Shown here: piece after piece, positions 2,771 to 35,518 of the stretch
How the letters are laid out: every line of letters starts with the position of its first letter
Numbering within the stretch: the first letter of the stretch is position 1
Assembly: GCA_028473545.1 (NCBI GenBank)
Contig: GCA_028473545.1_4546.1
Direction: 5' to 3' (one strand)
From: a phage
Length of the DNA: 45,074 nt
Program-made: the position numbers and the translations under genes
Notes under the pieces: generated by a model
Database searches by the model: none
What the model was told of the DNA's origin: nothing
Seen by the model: the letters and a program-made list of their open reading frames with translations, nothing else

Positions 2771-2852
2771 ATTTTGCGCGCATTGGTTGCCATTTTGAGT
2801 GTTTTTAGCTGGTCGCATTGGTTGCCGTGTAGTGTAAATATAGTGAATAGTT

Positions 2853-3058
2853 ATGCAGTTTTATTGCATAAAGTAAGCGGGACAAAAAGCGGGACAGACA
2901 GGGGCGGGACAAAGCGGGACAGCACCCCTGTCCCGCCCCGGATGGCGCGGCTTGCGGGGGAGCGGGACAGGCGGGACAAACCCCAGTCTTTCAGACTAGA
3001 CGGGGGTCAGTTGGCCCCCCTCGTCTGAGACTGCATAAAATCCGGGATTGCATAATGT
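2853..3058. repeat. Iteron module A: GCGGGACA octamer array, GC-rich hairpin and paired TGCATAA boxes
   Basis: Direct GCGGGACA copies at about 2877, 2889, 2904, 2914, 2962, 2971 and an inverted TGTCCCGC at about 2929; imperfect hairpin 2981-3033 (agacggggg..cccccctcgtct); TGCATAA pairs at 2853-2873 and 3036-3056. Noncoding. About 170 bp is near-identical to 20700-20870. Confidence 0.7.
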
Positions 3059-3185
3059 ACGGCAGCATGATGTGAATTGCTGTCGTCGACGAACTAGGCA
3101 ACCAATGCGTGTTGCAAAATGGAGAGTGAAAAATGCAGTTTGCAGTTACAGCGGATAGGGATCGGCTTTTTCATACGCGTGATTA

Positions 3186-3232
3186 ATATTGGTTGCATTC
3201 AGCCTGGCACCCTGCTAGATTGGTTGCACACC
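3186..3232 (+). promoter_or_regulatory. Promoter-like region with two ATTGGTTGCA boxes upstream of the 3250 gene
   Basis: ATTGGTTGCAT then 17-nt spacer then TAGATT, followed by a second ATTGGTTGCACACCAACAAGAGG directly before the RBS and ATG at 3250. Confidence 0.35.
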
Positions 3233-3249
3233 AACAAGAGGATTGAACA

Positions 3250-3576
3250 ATGAGAGCATTAATCTGGAATTACTCACTGGCAATGGCGGCGGCACAAGAA
3301 GCGGCGGAGTTCGCCGGTGAAGGGGCGGAAGCGGTCGAAAGACTAGCGGCAGCGTGGTCCGTTGTTCGCTTCGCGCAGCAGGCCATCGCCTGGATGCTTG
3401 AGCGCCGCTTCGACACGATGGCGGAGATCCAGCCGTTGGCGAACGCTATCCAGGACTACGCGCTTGCATTTGCCCGTGAGCGCCTGGCGTATCGCTTCGG
3501 TATTGGCGATAAGGCAGTGACAAACGTCGCCAGGATTAAAGCCCAGCGCGAACTATTCGCCCAGCTTGCGAAATAA
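3250..3576 (+). CDS. Hypothetical early protein
   Basis: 108-aa ORF with RBS aagagg; Ala-rich and helical; no recognisable motif. Confidence 0.5.
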   Translation: MRALIWNYSLAMAAAQEAAEFAGEGAEAVERLAAAWSVVRFAQQAIAWMLERRFDTMAEIQPLANAIQDYALAFARERLAYRFGIGDKAVTNVARIKAQRELFAQLAK

Positions 3577-4828: not shown

Positions 4829-5116
4829 ATGCTACACGATTTGATATTTTGGTTTGGTTTGGGGTGTGCGTCACTCTTTGTTGTGGTGCTGGCGCTGTTG
4901 GTATGGCTATTCCTGGTATGGCCCGCGGTGGAAGCCGCCAGCATTACCCGGATGACGTTCCAGATATACAAGCGCCGAGGCATAACGGAACACCCGACCA
5001 GGTTGCGCATGTGGTGGCTATGGTATCGGGATATGATTGGGGGCAGGATGTTTGAGGCCGTCCGATCGGACGGATGGGAATGGAAAGGCGTCGGCAAGTG
5101 GTCCATTTTCGATTAA
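4829..5116 (+). CDS. Small membrane protein (one N-terminal transmembrane helix)
   Basis: Start taken at MLHDLIFWF with an agggg RBS; hydrophobic FGLGCASLFVVVLALLVWLFLVW segment; lies just upstream of the lysis cassette. Confidence 0.4.
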   Translation: MLHDLIFWFGLGCASLFVVVLALLVWLFLVWPAVEAASITRMTFQIYKRRGITEHPTRLRMWWLWYRDMIGGRMFEAVRSDGWEWKGVGKWSIFD

Positions 5117-5133
5117 ATATGCAAGCGTGATAT

Positions 5134-5168
5134 AGTCCCAGTGAGCTAAAACTTACTGGGACTTTTTT
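5134..5168 (+). terminator. Rho-independent-type hairpin plus T6 immediately before the 5169 ATG
   Basis: agtcccagtgag..cttactgggact stem followed by tttttt; the ATG at 5169 follows directly without an obvious SD. Confidence 0.4.
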
Positions 5169-5459
5169 ATGGATAAGCTAAACGAGTGGTTATTCGCCCT
5201 CGCGTGTCTTGCAGGTGGCTTCGTTGGCGCTCGCATTCACGGTGAGGCAACGAAAGGGCCGCTAAATTTTGTGTTGTTTATCGTGGTCGGCTTCTTGTGC
5301 GCCGTGTTTGGGGCACCAGCTATTGCCGAGTGGTTTAATCTAACCGGACCGAGAACTGTCGCCGGTCTTGGCTTCGTAACGGCAATCTTCTGGATGCCGG
5401 TCGCCGCCAGAATCCGTGAAGCAATTTCCTCGTTCCGTCTGCCGGGGAATGCAAAATGA
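5169..5459 (+). CDS. Holin-like membrane protein
   Basis: 96 aa with multiple hydrophobic helices; directly upstream of a second small membrane protein and the endolysin. Confidence 0.5.
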   Translation: MDKLNEWLFALACLAGGFVGARIHGEATKGPLNFVLFIVVGFLCAVFGAPAIAEWFNLTGPRTVAGLGFVTAIFWMPVAARIREAISSFRLPGNAK

Positions 5460-6394: not shown

Positions 6395-6433
6395 TTGACT
6401 TGCAACCAACATAGAGGCCATACTGCAACCAAT
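6395..6433 (+). promoter_or_regulatory. Promoter-like element with two TGCAACCAA boxes
   Basis: TTGACT at 6395-6400, CATACT about 18 nt downstream; TGCAACCAA at 6401-6409 and 6424-6432. Confidence 0.35.
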
Positions 6434-11692: not shown

Positions 11693-12779
11693 TCAACATA
11701 TGGCGGATCGCATGATTCGCCGTCACATCTTCACCCAGCGCCTGAGCAATGACCAGGCGCGGCGGGTGTTGGCTATGTGGGAGAAGTTCCGACCCACGTT
11801 ACTTGGCAAGCTGACCGAGTTACTTGATGGCAAAAAGTCCATGAATAACAAGGCACTGACCACACTGTTAACGCAAATAGACAAAACCGTCAAAACGGAA
11901 CTGCGCACCGAGTTTAAGGCGCTGGCTGAAAGCCTTCAGGAGTTTGCCGACACCGAGGCTGATTATCTTGCCGATACATTAACGGCAGCGATCCAGCCTG
12001 CGGTAGCCGTACCGGCTGTTGAGGTTGTTGGCGTAGTGACTGGCGCGCAGATTGCGGCCACGGCTATGAAAAACCCGTTCCAGGGAAACACCATGATGCA
12101 ATGGCCTGATTCACTTTCTGAGTGGACCAGGACGCAGATCGGGAATCAGGTGCGCGCTGGATTCATCCAGGGCAAGCCGACTATGGAAATTATCGCGGAC
12201 GTAAAGCGCGCTCTCGGCGGTCGTAGCGCGCAAGCTATCTCAAGTGTTGTTAAGTCCGCAGTAAACCACTATGCGGCGACCGCCCGCGAGTTAATGGTGA
12301 AAGCTAATGACGAAATTCTCGAAGGTCGCCAATGGTTGGCTACATTGGATACGCACACATCACCAATGTGCCAACTACGCGATCGCCTGTTTTATCCTGT
12401 TGACGTCACTCCCGACACCAAAGGAAAGCGCGGCGGGAAAGAGGTGGCTGGATCACAATATGGCGCTGGTCCGGGCAAGCTACATTATTGCTGCCGTTCG
12501 ACGGAGACGTGGAAAGTTAAAGGCATGGAAGATTGGCCCAGTGGTAAGCGTCCGGCACTGAAGGCTGACGCGGGTCGATTGCTGAGTGAGCAGGTCGACG
12601 CGCAGACTGATTTCTTCTCATGGGTGCAGCGCCAGCCGCGCCATATTCTGGAGGAATTATATGGGGTGCAGCGCGCAGACCAGATTATGCGCGGCGTGAA
12701 AGTGCCTAAGATGTTCACCGATACCGGCGAACTAATGACTATTGCACAGCTTAAAAACCGGGGGTTATGGCGTGATTAA
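11676..12779 (+). CDS. Head morphogenesis protein (Mu gpF / SPP1 gp7-like minor head protein)
   Basis: 367-aa ORF overlapping the portal 3' end; position and size typical; product by synteny. Confidence 0.55.
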   Translation: MARTINQHMADRMIRRHIFTQRLSNDQARRVLAMWEKFRPTLLGKLTELLDGKKSMNNKALTTLLTQIDKTVKTELRTEFKALAESLQEFADTEADYLADTLTAAIQPAVAVPAVEVVGVVTGAQIAATAMKNPFQGNTMMQWPDSLSEWTRTQIGNQVRAGFIQGKPTMEIIADVKRALGGRSAQAISSVVKSAVNHYAATARELMVKANDEILEGRQWLATLDTHTSPMCQLRDRLFYPVDVTPDTKGKRGGKEVAGSQYGAGPGKLHYCCRSTETWKVKGMEDWPSGKRPALKADAGRLLSEQVDAQTDFFSWVQRQPRHILEELYGVQRADQIMRGVKVPKMFTDTGELMTIAQLKNRGLWRD

Positions 12780-13080
12780 ATATGCGGCGATCGGACTAGT
12801 TATCGGTCTGGCGGTTGGATTCTGGCAGGGTGATTCCTACCGCACTGGCGTTGTGGCGCAAGCGGCGCAAGAAGCGCAAGCGAAAGCCCAACGGCAGCAA
12901 ACTAAGGTTGTTGAGGGGTCGGTGAAGGCTGAGCAAGCCCGCGACGTGGAATACCGGACTATCACGAAAGAGGTTGTAAAATATGTTACGCGTCCTAACC
13001 GTCCTGATTGTAGTTTTGATGCTGAGCGCGTGCGGATCAAGCAAAGCGCCATCGACGCCGCTAACCGAGTCGGTCTATAG
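12742..13080 (+). CDS. i-spanin-like protein (N-terminal TM helix plus coiled-coil); start may be GTG at 12772
   Basis: Hydrophobic AAIGLVIGLAVGFW then Q/A/K-rich helical region; 3' end overlapped by a lipoprotein ORF in another frame. Confidence 0.4.
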   Translation: MHSLKTGGYGVIKYAAIGLVIGLAVGFWQGDSYRTGVVAQAAQEAQAKAQRQQTKVVEGSVKAEQARDVEYRTITKEVVKYVTRPNRPDCSFDAERVRIKQSAIDAANRVGL

Positions 13081-13213
13081 ACCGCCTTGCACCTTTGAGA
13101 ATGCATCGGCAGATCCAGACGAAGACTTGCTGGTTGATGTTAAAAATATGGAATGCGGGGCTAAGCTAAGGGCGCAAGTGCTGGAGTTGCAGAAAATAAT
13201 TCGGGGGCCGTGA
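12983..13213 (+). CDS. o-spanin-like lipoprotein
   Basis: 76 aa; signal peptide with lipobox LSAC; Pro/Cys-containing mature part; starts inside the preceding ORF in the +1 frame (Rz/Rz1-like overlap). Confidence 0.45.
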   Translation: MLRVLTVLIVVLMLSACGSSKAPSTPLTESVYRPPCTFENASADPDEDLLVDVKNMECGAKLRAQVLELQKIIRGP

Positions 13214-13226
13214 TGGCCCCTTTTTG
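13200..13226 (+). terminator. Rho-independent terminator at a convergent gene junction
   Basis: gggggcc..ggcccc stem followed by ttttt; lies between the plus-strand lipoprotein gene and the minus-strand island. Confidence 0.45.
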
Positions 13227-13230
13227 TTAA

Positions 13231-13746
13231 CTACAAACGCATCGGCATGATAACTAAAAAGGCACCTCCTTTGAACAGCACGCGTGTTGCCTTGTCTACT
13301 CCCTGAAATTCCAGTTTTAATCCCTCAAACTTACGGTCGAACAATTTAGCAATTTTGCAGGCGTCGGATAGGTATGCCCCGTTAAACCCGATAGCCTCCA
13401 CTTTATTGCTGATGAAAGACGTAACTCTTCTCCAGTCTGGAAATAATAGCCCGTCTACAATCTCGATGGGTATGGTAGCTATTAATACGTCTTTACTATC
13501 GAAGAACGCGGCGGAGGTGCCGTCTATGTTGCAGTATTCGAATTTAGTAGGTAAGCGGCTTTTAATTGATACTATTTTACTTTCACCTTCTGGTACAACC
13601 GCAGACCCGCAGAACAAACGGTGACCGTCTGTAGCCACGATGTATCCTTTCTCGTCGAAAAATACACCATTTAGGAAGTATCGGACGTCATTAGTTGCGG
13701 CGCATATCGTAGCGGCTTTAAGATCGGCGTAGTTAACTTTAATCAT
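13231..13746 (-). CDS. Truncated DnaN (beta sliding clamp) homologue, about 171 aa
   Basis: Start at MIKVNYADLK with gaggaa RBS; DVRYFLNGVFF..VATDGHRLF, DGLLFPDWRRV, EAIGFNGAYLSD and C-terminal VIMPMRL match conserved DnaN segments recalled from E. coli (VRYYLNGMLFE..VATDGHRLA, DGRFPDYRRV, EIGFNVSYVLD, VVMPMRL); far shorter than the 366-aa clamp. Confidence 0.6.
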   Translation of the reverse strand: MIKVNYADLKAATICAATNDVRYFLNGVFFDEKGYIVATDGHRLFCGSAVVPEGESKIVSIKSRLPTKFEYCNIDGTSAAFFDSKDVLIATIPIEIVDGLLFPDWRRVTSFISNKVEAIGFNGAYLSDACKIAKLFDRKFEGLKLEFQGVDKATRVLFKGGAFLVIMPMRL

Positions 13747-13803
13747 TTTAATTTCCTCGTGGTTATGTAGACGATAATTCGGGGCCATTACAGCCCCCTT
13801 TTG

Positions 13804-14568
13804 TTAGCGCGGAATACCGCAGATTTCGTTTAACGTCTTCACATCCAGCGCTACTGCCGTTGACTTCGGCTTGTCCGGGTATGGAATGAATTGTTCAACT
13901 TCAGGCCACGCCGCGATCAGCTTCTTGTCAGTATTGTGCATATCCAGCACGCCGGTAACGGTTAGTTTGAACGCGTCATACTTCGCACGCAATTCACGGC
14001 GGGCCTTGTCGTTGTGGTCCAGGCGCTTGCAGAAATCATGCTCTGCCGGGTAGTCTACGCGACCGCGTGGTAGATATATCGGCAGCGCTTTTCCGTCCTC
14101 ATCCACTTCACATACTGACGCGAGCATAATTTCCTCGTACCCCGGTACAATATCGCTAACGTCAGGCGCGAGCGTATTCATATATTTTTCTTCCCAGTAT
14201 CCGCGGTGCTGGCGGTAGCGGTATCCGTCGCCGCTCATATGCAGGGTACGGATGTTACCGCCTGCGTTGATTTCGAAAGTGGAGCAGTAAACGCGTCCAA
14301 TGCCTTTCTGACGGTCTTTGTTATAGCTATACGTCGCCTTGTCGGTGTAAACGCTGACGCCGTACATCTGCGACTGGTTATCGCGGATTTCTGCGATATA
14401 TGCGCGTAGCTCGGCGAACGTGTGAATGCCTTTTGGCATACAGTCCAGCGTAATTGCGTACGCCAGGTCGCGAGAGTCCATCATGATTGATTTGGCTTCA
14501 GTCGCGATTTCGTGGTCGCGCAGGATGTTAGCCAGAATCTGGTTTTTAATGTCTTTTGTCAGTCTCAT
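13804..14568 (-). CDS. Hypothetical protein (254 aa), island gene 2
   Basis: ORF with gagga RBS; no motif recognised. Confidence 0.55.
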   Translation of the reverse strand: MRLTKDIKNQILANILRDHEIATEAKSIMMDSRDLAYAITLDCMPKGIHTFAELRAYIAEIRDNQSQMYGVSVYTDKATYSYNKDRQKGIGRVYCSTFEINAGGNIRTLHMSGDGYRYRQHRGYWEEKYMNTLAPDVSDIVPGYEEIMLASVCEVDEDGKALPIYLPRGRVDYPAEHDFCKRLDHNDKARRELRAKYDAFKLTVTGVLDMHNTDKKLIAAWPEVEQFIPYPDKPKSTAVALDVKTLNEICGIPR

Positions 14569-14607
14569 TTGTGTTTCCTCATTGTTGGGGCTTTCGCCCC
14601 ATTTGGT

Positions 14608-14922
14608 TTAGTTAAACTTGATGTTGCCACCGATGGAGGTTAAGCGAGCGCATACTGCTTCAACGGCATCAACGCACATGAAATCGTTAAAGGCTTCGAC
14701 CAGGGCGTTGATGAAAGATGCCGGAACCAGACCACAAGCCGGATTATCGAAGGTTGCGGAATTGATCGCAGCTTTCGCAGCTTCAGTAGCGTTCATGCTC
14801 TGGCACAGATTCAGCGCTTCAGCGTTACGCATCGCGTGAAAGGTAAAGGTATTGGCAACGGCAGCTTTATTGAAACGGGTCATTGCTGCATCTACTGGAG
14901 TTGCTACGGTCATGTTATTCAT
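14608..14922 (-). CDS. Hypothetical protein (about 104 aa), island gene 3
   Basis: Start taken at MNNMTV with aaggaaaac RBS; an upstream ATG at 14937 is possible. Confidence 0.45.
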   Translation of the reverse strand: MNNMTVATPVDAAMTRFNKAAVANTFTFHAMRNAEALNLCQSMNATEAAKAAINSATFDNPACGLVPASFINALVEAFNDFMCVDAVEAVCARLTSIGGNIKFN

Positions 14923-14944
14923 TTTGTTTTCCTTCATATCTCTG

Positions 14945-14975
14945 TTGGTGTGCAACCAATATAGTGCAACCAATA
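14945..14975 (-). promoter_or_regulatory. Tandem ATTGGTTGCA boxes in the divergent intergenic region
   Basis: On the minus strand ATTGGTTGCActatATTGGTTGCACACCAACAGAG lies immediately upstream of the island start codon; the last 18 nt match the leader of the 3250 gene. Confidence 0.4.
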
Positions 14976-15077
14976 CCAGGATTGCAAGCGAATTTTGCGA
15001 TTATTTTTATCGCTGATAATATTAGAAGCGTGAAGTCGAGCGGGTGGCCCGCTCTGCCACAATCCCAGGGGGATAGC

Positions 15078-15782
15078 ATGAAACTTACTAAAGCAGAATA
15101 TGACGCGTTGCCGGAAAGTATGAAGGCGCTTTTTGTTGCCGATGGCGACGGGTATAAATCAACATTTATGTCCGCTGAGGAAGTACAGGCGGAAATCAAG
15201 GGTCTGAAAGACAACAACGCAAAGCTGGTGAGCGAGAAGAAAGCAGAAGCTGAACGCCGCGCCGAAGCCGAGCGCCTTGCGAAAGAGAAAGAGGAAGCCG
15301 CCGCGCGCAAAAATGGCGACCTCGAAGCGATCGATAAGTCTTGGAAGGATAAGTTTGCAAAACACGAAGCAGACACATCGGGGAAAATCGAATCCTATCG
15401 CAAGCAGATCCACGACCTCACTATCGGCAGCGCTGCCAAAGACCTGGCATCGAAGCTGTTTGGTAAGAATGCTGGCATCATGCAACGCCACGTAATGGAG
15501 CGCCTCGCGCTGGAAGACGGCGAAGACGGCAGCTTGAAAGTGCGTGTCTTGCAGGATGGCAAACCGTCCGCGCTGACTATGGACGAGCTTGAAAAAGAGT
15601 TCCGTAATAACGCTGATTTTGCATCCGTCCTGGCTGGCACGCCCGCTGGTGGCGCTCCGAGCAAACCGACACAGGTTATCGAAGATGCGAAGTCTAAAAT
15701 CACGATGGGCCATAGCTTCGGTATCACGGACCTGACGAAACAGGCAGGGGATATCATCGCTAAGATGGGCGACGACGAGTAA
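15078..15782 (+). CDS. Scaffolding protein (putative)
   Basis: Start at 15078 with aggggga RBS; 234 aa; charged coiled-coil (KKAEAERRAEAERLAKEKEEAAARK); directly upstream of the major capsid gene. Confidence 0.55.
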   Translation: MKLTKAEYDALPESMKALFVADGDGYKSTFMSAEEVQAEIKGLKDNNAKLVSEKKAEAERRAEAERLAKEKEEAAARKNGDLEAIDKSWKDKFAKHEADTSGKIESYRKQIHDLTIGSAAKDLASKLFGKNAGIMQRHVMERLALEDGEDGSLKVRVLQDGKPSALTMDELEKEFRNNADFASVLAGTPAGGAPSKPTQVIEDAKSKITMGHSFGITDLTKQAGDIIAKMGDDE

Positions 15783-15879
15783 GCAGATCGCCCGCGAAAG
15801 CTGGCGATTTTGCGAGCGCGTAAATCTAAGGTAACATTAACGTCACTGGGCGAATGCTCACAACTCAAAGGATTTCGAT

Positions 15880-16980
15880 ATGTCTTTAACAGTGTTCCAG
15901 CGTAAACTCGTTACCGCGGTTACGCAAATGATCCCCGACAACCTGAACGTGTTCAACGCTGCCGCTAATGGCGCTGTTGTTCTCGGTACAGGTGAAGTGC
16001 TGAAGGACGTTGTAGAAAAAATGTCCGTCGGCTTGATCGCCAACCTCGTTACTGACCGTAACGCATATGCACCTGTCGGTACTCCGGCAACCGCTAAAGT
16101 GCTGGCGCGTATGCTGACCAACTCGGTTAACCTCTCCGCGAAAGTGGGTCCGGTTGCAATCACTAAGGCTATGATGGCTAAGATCGAAACCAACGTTAAC
16201 AGCGTTGCGGCTGAGATTGCGGCACAGGCTACTCAAGCGATTATGCTGCATTACCTGAAGGCCGGTATCGGCGCAAGTAAAGCGGCGATCGAAAGCAACG
16301 CAGCGGCAGCATACACCCAACCGGCGCGCGTTGATGGCGTTGGCGGTCGTACTTTCCCGACCCTGGCAGACTTCCCGCTGGCGGCTTCTAAGTTCGGCGA
16401 TCAGGCGTCTTTGATTAAGTCCTGGTTTATGGATGGCGTTACCTGGGCTAACTTCATTGCGTACCAGGCGCTGCCTTCCGCTGAGCAGGTATTCGCGATC
16501 GGCGATCTGCAAGTAATGGGTGATGGCCTGGGCCGTCGTTTCATTATCTCCGATGCCGCTGCCGATGCTATGGGCGTGGGCAAAATGCTGGGTCTGGTCC
16601 CTGGCGCGGTTGCAGTTACCACCAACGGCCTCGATATGCTGGCGCAGGAAAAAGGCGGTAACGAGAACATCGAGCGCTGGTGGCAGGGTGAGTTCGACTT
16701 CAACGTGGCTGTTAAAGGCTATCGTCTGAAGGCGTCCGCTCGTACTCCGGTTGAAGGTGTCCGCTCGTTCACACTGGCGGATATCACCACCAAGGACAAC
16801 TGGGAGCTGGATCAGGGCCAGGTAGACAACGCTCCGGCAACCGTCCAGGATGTTGGCGCGGTGGGTGATGGCGATACTAAAGGCCGTCGCAAGACCCAGG
16901 CAGCACAGGCCGTGCCGACCCGTAACATCAAGGAAACGGCTGGCGTACTGGTTACGCTGACTCCGACCAGCGCGTCCTAA
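15880..16980 (+). CDS. Major capsid protein (putative)
   Basis: 366 aa; follows the scaffold gene; strong terminator follows; product by position. Confidence 0.65.
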   Translation: MSLTVFQRKLVTAVTQMIPDNLNVFNAAANGAVVLGTGEVLKDVVEKMSVGLIANLVTDRNAYAPVGTPATAKVLARMLTNSVNLSAKVGPVAITKAMMAKIETNVNSVAAEIAAQATQAIMLHYLKAGIGASKAAIESNAAAAYTQPARVDGVGGRTFPTLADFPLAASKFGDQASLIKSWFMDGVTWANFIAYQALPSAEQVFAIGDLQVMGDGLGRRFIISDAAADAMGVGKMLGLVPGAVAVTTNGLDMLAQEKGGNENIERWWQGEFDFNVAVKGYRLKASARTPVEGVRSFTLADITTKDNWELDQGQVDNAPATVQDVGAVGDGDTKGRRKTQAAQAVPTRNIKETAGVLVTLTPTSAS

Positions 16981-29708: not shown

Positions 29709-29735
29709 GAAGGGGCCATCCGGCCCCTTTTTTAA
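29709..29735. terminator. Bidirectional rho-independent terminator
   Basis: ggggcc-atcc-ggcccc hairpin flanked by tttttt (plus) and T-rich sequence on the minus side; at a convergent gene junction; near-identical copy at 32533-32560. Confidence 0.5.
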
Positions 29736-30706
29736 TACATGTTAGGTATGACGAGTAACGGGGTTGGGACGGCTATGTTGCGGTTAGGCATCTGGAATTG
29801 CTGCCGTGAGTAGTTACCGATTACGCGATTACGCGCCGCACTAACCACGTTGCCCGCCATGCGTATCCCGTTCATTCGAACGTGGTTGTAGCCGCTGTTG
29901 TTCTCAATGAGCGCGCCGGTATATGAAAGCTGTACGAGGCTATTACCGATATTCTGACCGCCGGTGCCGATATTAATTACCGAATTGAGCACAAACGGCT
30001 TGTTAACGGTCGAGAACGTGACCTGCCCCTGGTTGTTCGTCATGGTGATACCAGTCCCCGGTGATGGAGGCGTATTGTTGAAGATAACCAGATCCAAGTC
30101 CACTTCGGCCCCGACGTCATCAATCCCGCCATAAGACGAATTGCGGACGATGATACTACTACCATCGAAGCCTACCGATACGTTGCCATTATCCCAGCGC
30201 GCGAACGGGATACCGCCCACAGGCAAAGGCATACTACCGTTCACGTGCACGCGCTGCGCGTAGCGGCAGGTCATTAACCGGGACACGTTGGAAATCGCGG
30301 TGAAGTCTGTCGAGTTCGCCACCAGTAAGCCCGCATTGCGTGACCCCACCGGCAGCACTTCCATAATTATACCAGCCCATTGCGGGAGGCCGCTGTATGC
30401 GTTATGCGCGTCCGCGCCTCGAAGGATAATTCCACTATCCCCGTTGCGCTGTACCGACGTCACGTAGAACGGGTCGGGGAGAACCAGCGTCTGGTCGAAC
30501 ACCTCAAGCACTTCTACCGGGCGCGTGAGTGCAACGACAAGGTCCGACCCTGGTGTTAGCGGGGTATTAATGGTCAGCGTCTTGTCGGACTGGCAGCGCT
30601 GATCAAACGTAGTGCAGTATGACGGAGCGCGCAAACCGGCAGTTATCTCCATAATCGGTCGTCCGTCGTTGTAGTCGATGAGTATTCCAGCGCCCATTAT
30701 TACCAC
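29732..30706 (-). CDS. Putative receptor-binding / tail accessory protein (GTG start)
   Basis: 324-aa antisense ORF between the J-like and tail-fiber genes; Gly/Asn/Ser/Thr-rich; start codon abuts the upstream lipoprotein stop. Confidence 0.45.
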   Translation of the reverse strand: MVIMGAGILIDYNDGRPIMEITAGLRAPSYCTTFDQRCQSDKTLTINTPLTPGSDLVVALTRPVEVLEVFDQTLVLPDPFYVTSVQRNGDSGIILRGADAHNAYSGLPQWAGIIMEVLPVGSRNAGLLVANSTDFTAISNVSRLMTCRYAQRVHVNGSMPLPVGGIPFARWDNGNVSVGFDGSSIIVRNSSYGGIDDVGAEVDLDLVIFNNTPPSPGTGITMTNNQGQVTFSTVNKPFVLNSVINIGTGGQNIGNSLVQLSYTGALIENNSGYNHVRMNGIRMAGNVVSAARNRVIGNYSRQQFQMPNRNIAVPTPLLVIPNMY

Positions 30707-30921
30707 TCCCGTGATTTAACAGATACAGTGCCTGAGAAATTGCCGTCGCTATCGGCAGATAGGCCCGTGAAGCGCATGTCCACGGCCCCGGCAGGGACTT
30801 TTTGCCCGTCAACGTAGCGTAACATGCAGCTACCGTAAGCAACCGTAATGCAATCGCCGTTGTTGCGTTCTACAGCACAACCGGACAAAAGGACCGCACA
30901 AATCATAATTAAAGTTTTCAT
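30700..30921 (-). CDS. Small lipoprotein (candidate Llp/Cor-like superinfection exclusion protein)
   Basis: Start at MKTLIMICAVLLSGC with aggag RBS; lipobox LSGC; 73 aa; adjacent to the putative receptor-binding gene. Confidence 0.5.
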   Translation of the reverse strand: MKTLIMICAVLLSGCAVERNNGDCITVAYGSCMLRYVDGQKVPAGAVDMRFTGLSADSDGNFSGTVSVKSREW

Positions 30922-30975: not shown

Positions 30976-30985
30976 TGCAACCAAT
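30976..30985 (+). promoter_or_regulatory. TGCAACCAAT box upstream of the tail fiber gene
   Basis: TGCAACCAATTTTAAGAGG directly precedes the ATG at 31003; lies in the divergent region between lipoprotein and fiber genes. Confidence 0.3.
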
Positions 30986-33818: not shown

Positions 33819-33842
33819 GTGCAACCAACCTATTGGTTGCAA
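33819..33842. promoter_or_regulatory. Palindromic pair of ATTGGTTGCA boxes
   Basis: TGCAACCAAcctATTGGTTGCA inverted repeat in the gap between two minus-strand genes. Confidence 0.35.
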
Positions 33843-35438: not shown

Positions 35439-35518
35439 CGTGTTGTCTCCAGGTATTAAAAAGGGCGTCCAACCGGACACCCTTAAGATAATGCAACCAA
35501 TCTAATTACGCAACCAAT

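Follow-up and report, generated by a model that had tools for sequence, protein, structure and literature searches.

A probable minus-strand accessory operon in the structural gene region of a Dhillonvirus phage, with nmad5 between two optional cassettes, one encoding a truncated beta-clamp homologue

What are three consecutive minus-strand genes doing in the middle of a phage's plus-strand structural region, and do they work together? The question is raised by a phage contig of 45,074 nucleotides (nt) (GCA_028473545.1_4546.1, assembly GCA_028473545.1; the whole stretch is referred to here as the window), in which such an island, at 13231-14922, separates the Rz/Rz1 spanin genes from the scaffold gene. 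Positions 12700-15900 are 99.8 % identical, over the full length of the region, to vB_EcoS-CHD5UKE2, an Escherichia phage of the genus Dhillonvirus, and are matched by 159 phage records, nearly all of which are Dhillonvirus coliphages. An earlier note on the window had proposed the island as one undescribed system. That proposal is not borne out: the genes assort independently, and the middle one, nmad5, belongs to a described Pfam family that has been tied to Tmn immunity in this genus and at this position. The block is probably, though by no means certainly, one minus-strand accessory operon at a recombination hot spot, with nmad5 as an anchor and exchangeable single-gene cassettes beside it, rather than one system. 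The island is a known kind of thing whose core gene has already been published in Dhillonvirus, and its best lead, and most promising unexplored content, is a small beta-clamp homologue.

The gene next to the spanins (13231-13746, minus strand) encodes this mini-clamp of 171 amino acids (aa); it is followed by nmad5 (13804-14568, minus strand; 254 aa, PF18757) and by a gene for an acidic helical protein of 104 aa (14608-14922, minus strand; phrog_24635). The two outer genes are optional cassettes, and nmad5, though dispensable, is the conserved core of the locus. The boundaries given in the earlier note were upheld: a Shine-Dalgarno sequence lies ahead of each start (GAGGAAA, GAGGAAA and GAAGGAAA for the clamp gene, nmad5 and the 104-aa gene, respectively) and homologue alignments begin at these starts, not at those of the longer mechanical open reading frames (to 13788; to 14937/14973), which lack a Shine-Dalgarno sequence. 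All three genes are under purifying selection, with dN/dS values against relatives of 0.21-0.45 for the clamp gene, 0.13-0.25 for nmad5 and 0.03 for the 104-aa gene. The GC content of the island is 48.7 %, compared with 54.2 % for the window, which places it among the lowest 0.7 % of sliding windows of its size, and the clamp gene has the lowest GC content of the island (44.4 %). In the CHD5UKE2 record the clamp gene is labelled ‘DNA polymerase III beta subunit; possible moron gene product’ and the other two ‘hypothetical’. For the 104-aa gene this record uses an ATG start at 14937 that lacks a ribosome-binding site, 14922 being the better start. Also annotated there is a 34-aa plus-strand coding sequence (CHD5UKE2_013, window 14913-15017), probably spurious, which shares sequence with the island promoter and with the beginning of the 104-aa gene.

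The distribution of the three genes was counted across 50,697 phage records, and the layout of clamp gene, nmad5 and 104-aa gene was found in this phage only. Every pairwise and single combination occurred in close relatives. The clamp gene and nmad5 are adjacent in 101114BS4, nmad5 and the 104-aa gene in Bas85 (about 60 records altogether), and EP23 has nmad5 with the clamp gene on the opposite side. In SM_S22, Ioannina, bob, WFI and EE09 nmad5 stands alone, and it is accompanied by an unrelated 135-aa gene in PTXU06 and by an unrelated 106-aa gene in the metagenomic locus L006; the latter was considered as a counterpart of the 104-aa gene and rejected. Teewinot (NC_073053, L013, 2501-2650) has a natural deletion that leaves a stump of nmad5, its first 54 codons, joined to the spanin terminator, and a wild Dhillonvirus can therefore live without the entire island. 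At identities of at least 80 %, nmad5 was found in 143 records (145 records at a coverage of at least 80 %), the clamp gene in 16 and the 104-aa gene in 61. More distant relatives comprised C-terminal-half homologues of Nmad5 in Shiga toxin (Stx)/lambdoid, Yuavirus and Bordetella phages, 218 records for the mini-clamp, mostly from Salmonella, Klebsiella and other enterobacterial siphoviruses, and 11 for the 104-aa gene, from Pantoea and Ackermannviridae phages. The clamp gene occurred in 98 Salmonella-phage and 24 Klebsiella-phage records; among the genera with nmad5 hits Salmonella is not listed and Klebsiella accounts for two records. Each of the three genes occurs without the other two outside Dhillonvirus, and they assort independently within the genus. 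The island is thus variable in related phages, the check that the earlier note had suggested, but its genes do not travel as a unit.

How the cassettes came to lie here can be read from the junctions. Hairpin A (13188-13229; stem 13203-13221 plus a T-run) is the flanking terminator of the earlier note, and it was called on both strands: its stem has eight pairs, six of them GC, and a both-strand terminator scan scored it as a terminator on the minus strand too. It appears to serve both directions, closing the packaging/head/spanin unit that comes from upstream on the plus strand as well as the island operon on the minus strand. The clamp cassette lies between the copies of a 37 nt direct repeat, D1 (13188-13224 and 13766-13802, 73 % identity), the left copy being hairpin A. 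The right copy of this duplicated terminator is hairpin B (13766-13803; hairpin 13781-13797), and in phages without the clamp gene hairpin A abuts the nmad5 stop codon; hairpin B is best read as the original spanin/nmad5 junction, a scar of the insertion of the clamp cassette. Between nmad5 and the 104-aa gene, hairpin C (14586-14601) marks the 3′ end of the 104-aa cassette, which, with this hairpin of its own, is inserted within the leader between ...CATTGTTGG and TGTGCAACC. Hairpin C is found wherever the 104-aa gene or a remnant of it occurs (Bas85, EP23), is absent where the leader runs directly into nmad5 (101114BS4, SM_S22), and is terminator-like for plus-strand (antisense) transcripts only. 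EP23 still has ~25 nt from the end of the 104-aa gene, immediately before the stop codon of the clamp gene, from which it follows that the clamp gene replaced the 104-aa gene there. These scars point to separate acquisitions of the cassettes. Exchange would proceed by recombination at the repeated hairpin and leader sequences, with cassettes swapped on either side of the conserved, dispensable nmad5, and this phage would simply happen to hold two of them simultaneously.

The flanks are as the earlier note described them, with the spanin genes (phrog_2536/5672) at 12742-13213 and the scaffold gene (phrog_206) at 15078-15782. The operon would lie between two transcription units, beyond the terminator that closes the packaging/head/spanin unit and ahead of the promoter from which the scaffold/capsid/tail unit is transcribed. 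The divergent intergenic region (14923-15077) has a minus-strand promoter side and a side leading to the scaffold gene. On the minus strand a sigma-70-like promoter was predicted (−35 TTGCAA at 14987-14982, an 18 nt spacer, −10 TATATT at 14963-14958). The region holds exact 12 nt direct repeats, GTGCAACCAATA, at 14950-14961 and 14964-14975, 14 nt apart, and the two ATTGGTTGCA boxes within them (14951-14960 and 14965-14974) overlap the putative promoter, one lying in its spacer and the other reaching from the −10 hexamer across the likely start site; a leader (...CACACCAACA) and the ribosome-binding site then follow. Whichever gene is first, this promoter and leader stay scaffold-proximal in every relative. 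Transcription would start at this promoter and end at the hairpin at 13203-13221, and three plus-strand-oriented terminator-like hairpins in the gaps of the island (13203, 13781 and 14586) would shield the block from incoming late transcription.

The pair of boxes had been noted previously as a feature of the island, and the pair itself stands, but the boxes are a genome-wide signal and not island-specific. With up to one mismatch, ATTGGTTGCA has 17 sites in the window compared with 3.3 expected, a number reached in none of 100 shuffles. The sites (2782-3228, 3773, 6401-6433, 14951-14974, 30976, 33820-33841, 35492-35518, 38450 and 45041) are almost all intergenic and ahead of non-structural genes on either strand, among them, outside the island, genes of DNA metabolism, and at several of the sites the box provides or abuts sigma-70-like hexamers. 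The gene at 3250-3576 is preceded by the same box-box-CACACCAACA-ribosome-binding-site leader as the island. The box is probably an operator/promoter element of the non-structural transcription programme of the phage and, since boxes and leader are shared with non-structural genes, we infer that the island is transcribed with that programme. The boxes are often paired, and one pair forms a perfect palindrome, TGCAACCAAT-ag-GTTGGTTGCA, at 33820-33841.

The anchor gene could be assigned with confidence. Over its full length the 254-aa protein matches Pfam Nmad5 (PF18757; E=1e-54, 186.2 bits compared with a cut-off of 27), residues 1-253 aligning to profile positions 1-206, and alignments show all of the signature motifs of the family, namely N-terminal MRLT, T..KL..WPE and C-terminal LN..CG[IL]P. 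Remote homology, which the earlier note had recommended for the island proteins, therefore resolved this one. In an AlphaFold2 model (pLDDT 84, pTM 0.78) the core is helical, the variable middle carries an inserted beta-sheet, and residues 233-241 form a disordered linker, behind which lies the conserved C-terminal peptide. No solved fold in the PDB matched the model, and no set of acidic or histidine catalytic residues is conserved across the Nmad5 alignments. The peptide (within 233-254) is conserved family-wide as A-[VI]-A-L-x3-T-L-N-x2-C-G-[IL]-P behind the low-confidence linker, and looks like a short docking motif for a conserved partner. It also bears a loose resemblance to the hexameric clamp-binding motif Q-L-x-L-G-L.

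The neighbours of distant relatives suggest where such a protein may act. Full-length homologues of ~25 % identity head replication operons, in the order helix-turn-helix gene, a further gene, Nmad5, DUF2800 exonuclease, gp2.5-like SSB and PolA; the 156-158-aa gene upstream of Nmad5 in these operons was considered as a mini-clamp and rejected, as it is not a clamp. The lambdoid homologue mEp235 gp37, which corresponds to the C-terminal half, is encoded in the pL operon, with N/Nun on one side and cIII-kil-Erf-SSB-Exo-abc2 on the other. We take Nmad5 here to be a dispensable, probably non-enzymatic protein, most likely a binding or adaptor protein of the replication/recombination gene set.

The same gene, at the same position by the scaffold and capsid genes, has been met in the Dhillonviruses SM_A8 and SM_S22, in which a single K216E/K296E change in nmad5 gave escape from Tmn and its reversion restored sensitivity; a phage deleted for nmad5 was viable and still restricted by Tmn, and nmad5 could not be cloned, apparently because of toxicity (PMC11846954; Yamashita et al., 2025). 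The window protein is 83.5 % identical in amino acid sequence to that of SM_S22 and has the equivalent lysine, K216, which is nearly invariant in the family and lies within its most conserved motif (T213-x-x-K216-L217-x-x-x-W221-P222-E223). SM_S22 and SM_A8 carry nmad5 alone or with the 104-aa gene, whereas the phage studied here adds the mini-clamp cassette. In SM_S22 (PP627283, L005, 2261-3265) nmad5 is annotated as a 334-aa coding sequence that is 80 codons over-long and overlaps the scaffold gene, the real protein having 254 aa; by alignment, the difference between K296 and K216 with a ‘truncated N-terminus’ is an annotation artefact, and both numbers denote the same position.

We conclude that Tmn escape is a gain of function at the core interaction motif of Nmad5 and not the loss of a Tmn trigger: Nmad5 would not be the trigger, and reversal of the charge at K216 would create a form that blocks Tmn immunity. 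The protein does not resemble an enzyme, K216 belongs to its core motif and the phage has no hypermodification pathway; it is therefore unlikely that Tmn senses a modification made by Nmad5; a protein–protein mechanism would be the more apt explanation. The known immune triggers of Dhillonviruses were also considered as island products and rejected, none being located there: the gene for Ksap1, the trigger of Avs2, has a methyltransferase gene on one side and a phosphatase gene on the other, RAZR is triggered by the portal, and escapers of Retron-Eco8 and Borvo map to SSB and DNA polymerase.

The mini-clamp was recognised by the earlier note as a truncated beta-clamp homologue, and this was confirmed with E=2e-6 against E. 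coli beta for the single sequence (phmmer against PDB) and E=4e-23 for a 43-member family profile (beta residues 137-252 and 315-366). Residues 1-112 align with beta domain II (beta about 130-252). The final third can be aligned with either half of domain III and has IGFN..Y and a terminal V-[IV]-MPMRL in common with the C-terminal half, so that in the preferred alignment the protein would consist of 1.5 domains, domain II and the C-terminal half of domain III. It has no domain I and, by that alignment, would lack the first half of domain III and the canonical I272/L273 dimer interface. At 171 aa it compares with 366 aa for DnaN, and its C-terminus (...MPMRL) is identical to that of the clamp. 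The DnaN equivalog model TIGR00663 was not reached (25.7 bits compared with a cut-off of 137.65), and the protein is therefore a derivative and not a DnaN; PF02767 also scored below its cut-off (22.1 compared with 27 bits). The family is large: 1295 cluster representatives were found (E≤1e-3), and among the best 150 almost all have lengths of 165-230 aa.

The part of the clamp that has been retained is its docking site. Of the 18 residues of the peptide-binding pocket of the E. coli clamp, which comprise subsite I (R152, L155, T172, G174, H175, R176, L177, P242, R246, V247, V360 and M362) and subsite II (H175, N320, Y323, V344, M362, P363, M364 and R365) (PMC11139829), 17 are identical in the window protein, and 11 of the 18 most conserved columns of the mini-clamp family are pocket positions (hypergeometric p=1e-8). 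In a scan of the phage proteome no canonical clamp-binding motif was found in the non-structural proteins and none was terminal; two internal matches, in the terminase and the capsid protein, were set aside as probably due to chance. Because the non-structural proteins of the phage lack the motif, we infer that the ligands are most likely host clamp partners. The mini-clamp would bind the clamp-binding-motif peptides of such partners (polymerases, the clamp loader and repair factors), and by titrating them or redirecting them to phage DNA would contribute to host takeover. A pocket of the mini-clamp type could also, though this is the weaker possibility, be the docking site of the C-terminal Nmad5 peptide (LN-x-[IL]-C-G-[IL]-P, on its disordered linker).

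Many mini-clamps are hidden by their annotation. The phrog_3007 label of RusA-like Holliday junction resolvase was rejected, as no RusA Pfam hit was obtained at E≤1 and all homology was to the beta clamp; on this sequence evidence the label is a misannotation, and one that many GenBank records have taken over. Loci of the phrog_3007 type were seen in EP23 (L004, 1674-2186), C130_2 (L011, 11969-12553) and SeSz-2 (L020, 2995-3531). The neighbours of the gene vary: in the Skatevirus SeSz-2 it is the last gene of an operon with an anti-restriction gene, a ParB-like gene and further genes, and in C130_2 it lies between two methyltransferase genes. Literature searches turned up no described truncated phage clamp. 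We offer it as a tentative suggestion that mini-clamps are a large unstudied class of phage proteins, of ~1,300 clusters at 50 % identity, which keep the pocket on three of the twelve repeat units of the clamp and serve either as a sponge or adaptor for host partners or as a four-subunit ring for a phage PolA replisome. If a sponge or adaptor, the mini-clamp could have Pol III alpha/delta, Hda, Pol II/IV/V, MutL, ligase and RecBCD among its targets and would shut down or redirect host replication and repair, and copying the docking site of the clamp would be a new viral strategy against the hub of the bacterial replisome; a four-subunit ring, if it forms, would be unprecedented. Either way, the mini-clamps misannotated as RusA-like or as Pol III beta in GenBank offer a testable idea of how small siphoviruses handle the host replisome.

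Short forms of the clamp are known from the host itself. E. coli beta* is a UV-induced short form of DnaN that consists of domains II-III, and the N-terminal boundary of the mini-clamp presumably lies near the start of beta*. The clamp inhibitors of the Staphylococcus phages Twort and G1 bind the sliding clamp and are not clamp homologues; interference with the clamp network may be common to both, but the mini-clamp would compete for partners by mimicking the pocket.

The third protein gave little away. The 104-aa protein has ten homologue clusters among 5.8 billion proteins, and it was predicted with confidence to fold into a small bundle of helices with a beta hairpin at one terminus. Fold and family searches, also recommended by the earlier note, were uninformative for it (Pfam, PDB, NCBIfam and PADLOC), and NCBIfam, PADLOC and Rfam searches yielded nothing useful. 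Its homologues share no neighbour gene across the genomes examined; the 183/184-aa genes downstream of them show no relationship among themselves or with the clamp or Nmad5. The most economical guess is that it is a stand-alone small binder. A 75 %-identical homologue was seen on a Logan contig from SRR23967305 (L018, a 47-kb phage; features at 344-2287 and 5001-5309), which also encodes an adenylosuccinate-synthetase-like (PurZ-type) protein and an HD/YfbR-like phosphohydrolase, and this phage may therefore have a diaminopurine genome. In the early region of the unrelated Pantoea phage AAM37 (L016, 1-467 and 3501-3815) a mini-clamp (gp42) is encoded together with a homologue of the 104-aa protein (gp50).

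Could the genes nevertheless form one co-functional undescribed system, for example with Nmad5 tethered to DNA by the mini-clamp and the 104-aa protein as a regulator? They are adjacent, co-oriented and tightly spaced between a single promoter region and a single terminator, and all three are flavoured with DNA metabolism in other phages, but a set that is complete in one phage, comes apart into all its smaller combinations and changes its order in close relatives, is scattered outside the genus and bears the scars of separate acquisitions makes such a system very unlikely. Still less credible, to the point that we would hardly entertain it, is a role in head assembly or in the virion. Apart from the position between the head morphogenesis/spanin genes and the scaffold gene, which is paralleled by the mini-clamp of the Kagunavirus fPoEco01, likewise antisense inside the head module, everything speaks against it: the opposite strand, the own promoter, the shielding plus-strand terminators, the viability of nmad5 deletion mutants and of the natural Teewinot deletion, and homologies to a replisome protein and to replication-module genes. 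By mass spectrometry of the EE09 virion lysate, moreover, 24 phage proteins were detected, among them the flanking scaffold, capsid and head proteins but not the Nmad5 homologue CDS32, in line with the view of the earlier note that the island has no recognisable virion role.

A DNA-modification module, in which Nmad5 modifies phage DNA and Tmn senses the modification, would account for the Pfam family name and for the mapping of Tmn escape to nmad5, and Nmad5 is termed a DNA-modification enzyme in PMC11846954, a label that is not supported by the evidence here. Its strongest argument comes from Yuavirus (MP1412), in which Nmad5 is embedded in a thymidine-hypermodification cluster between aGPT-Pplase1 and the deoxyuridine (dU) hydroxymethylase. 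This M6-like Nmad5 belongs to the same family and has the C-terminal T..KL..WPE and LN..GLP motifs in common with the window protein, but it is shorter (186 aa) and has kinase, radical S-adenosylmethionine (rSAM) and pyridoxal phosphate (PLP) enzymes nearby, partners that the window genome lacks. Hydroxymethylase, 5-hydroxymethyldeoxyuridine (5-hmdU) kinase and aGPT-Pplase are absent from the fully annotated relative Bas85, and nothing comparable appears in the gene map of the window; Dhillonviruses are sensitive to restriction-modification in comparison with the truly hypermodified Queuovirinae (PMC8594841). Deletion of nmad5 does not relieve Tmn restriction, and loss of a modification therefore cannot be the escape route. 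With neither an enzyme-like fold nor conserved catalytic residues in Nmad5, and with C-terminal-half homologues in the pL operon of temperate lambdoid phages, we consider this module improbable. Somewhat better placed, though still unlikely, is a pure anti-defence cassette, each gene inhibiting a host immune system and Nmad5 being a natural inhibitor whose range K216E extends to Tmn. The hot-spot behaviour, dispensability, toxicity and gain-of-function escape mutation all suit it, as do the Skatevirus operon, which opens with an anti-restriction gene and closes with the mini-clamp, and the position of the lambdoid Nmad5-C homologue in the ral/sieB-type slot of the pL operon. Against it, none of the proteins resembles a catalogued defence or anti-defence protein in sequence or fold, Nmad5 is near-universal and conserved rather than fast-evolving, its distant homologues head replication operons, and the conserved surface of the mini-clamp is the pocket for replisome partners. 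An anti-defence or host-takeover role nevertheless seems plausible for all three genes.

Several points also weigh against an accessory operon of unrelated cassettes as set out here. The Yuavirus context supports a nucleotide-modification role of Nmad5 in those phages. That the final third of the mini-clamp corresponds to the C-terminal and not the N-terminal half of domain III is read from motif matches (IGFN..Y, MPMRL) and a modest difference in score, and the pocket residues are among the most conserved of bacterial clamps generally (PMC11139829), so that their retention could partly reflect constraints of the fold. C130_2 has Nmad5 and a mini-clamp 5 kb apart, and in AAM37, the sole hint of a recurring mini-clamp/104-aa association, the two genes are 3 kb, or seven genes, apart; from these pairs a loose functional theme, DNA metabolism, may link the genes. 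Promoter use and timing in Dhillonvirus are read from sequence, and co-transcription of the three genes may leave room for opportunistic cooperation.

The accessory operon has much in common with phage morons and hot spots, as the earlier note had judged from its layout: it has a terminator and a predicted promoter of its own, lies antisense in a late region, is low in GC, is polymorphic for presence or absence, and has a dispensable core gene (PMC11846954). It differs from them in that a conserved anchor, nmad5, is combined with two exchangeable slots under one shared promoter and leader, instead of a single self-contained insert. A locus with recombination scars and a shared promoter/leader could suit the insertion of payloads in therapeutic Dhillonvirus phages.

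Two further observations concern other genes. In EE09 (OR756193, L021, 1812-2350) the scaffold gene is annotated as the overlapping coding sequences CDS29 (99 aa) and CDS30 (88 aa), both of which were found by mass spectrometry; the split is probably a frameshift or sequencing error, and not a novel structural protein as was proposed in the EE09 paper. A second antisense cassette lies in the tail region of the window (29732-30921, minus strand), with a ATTGGTTGCA box ahead of it at 30976, and encodes a DUF6453 membrane protein (phrog_1265, ‘moron’) and a Cor-like lipoprotein (PF24052), likely a superinfection-exclusion pair.

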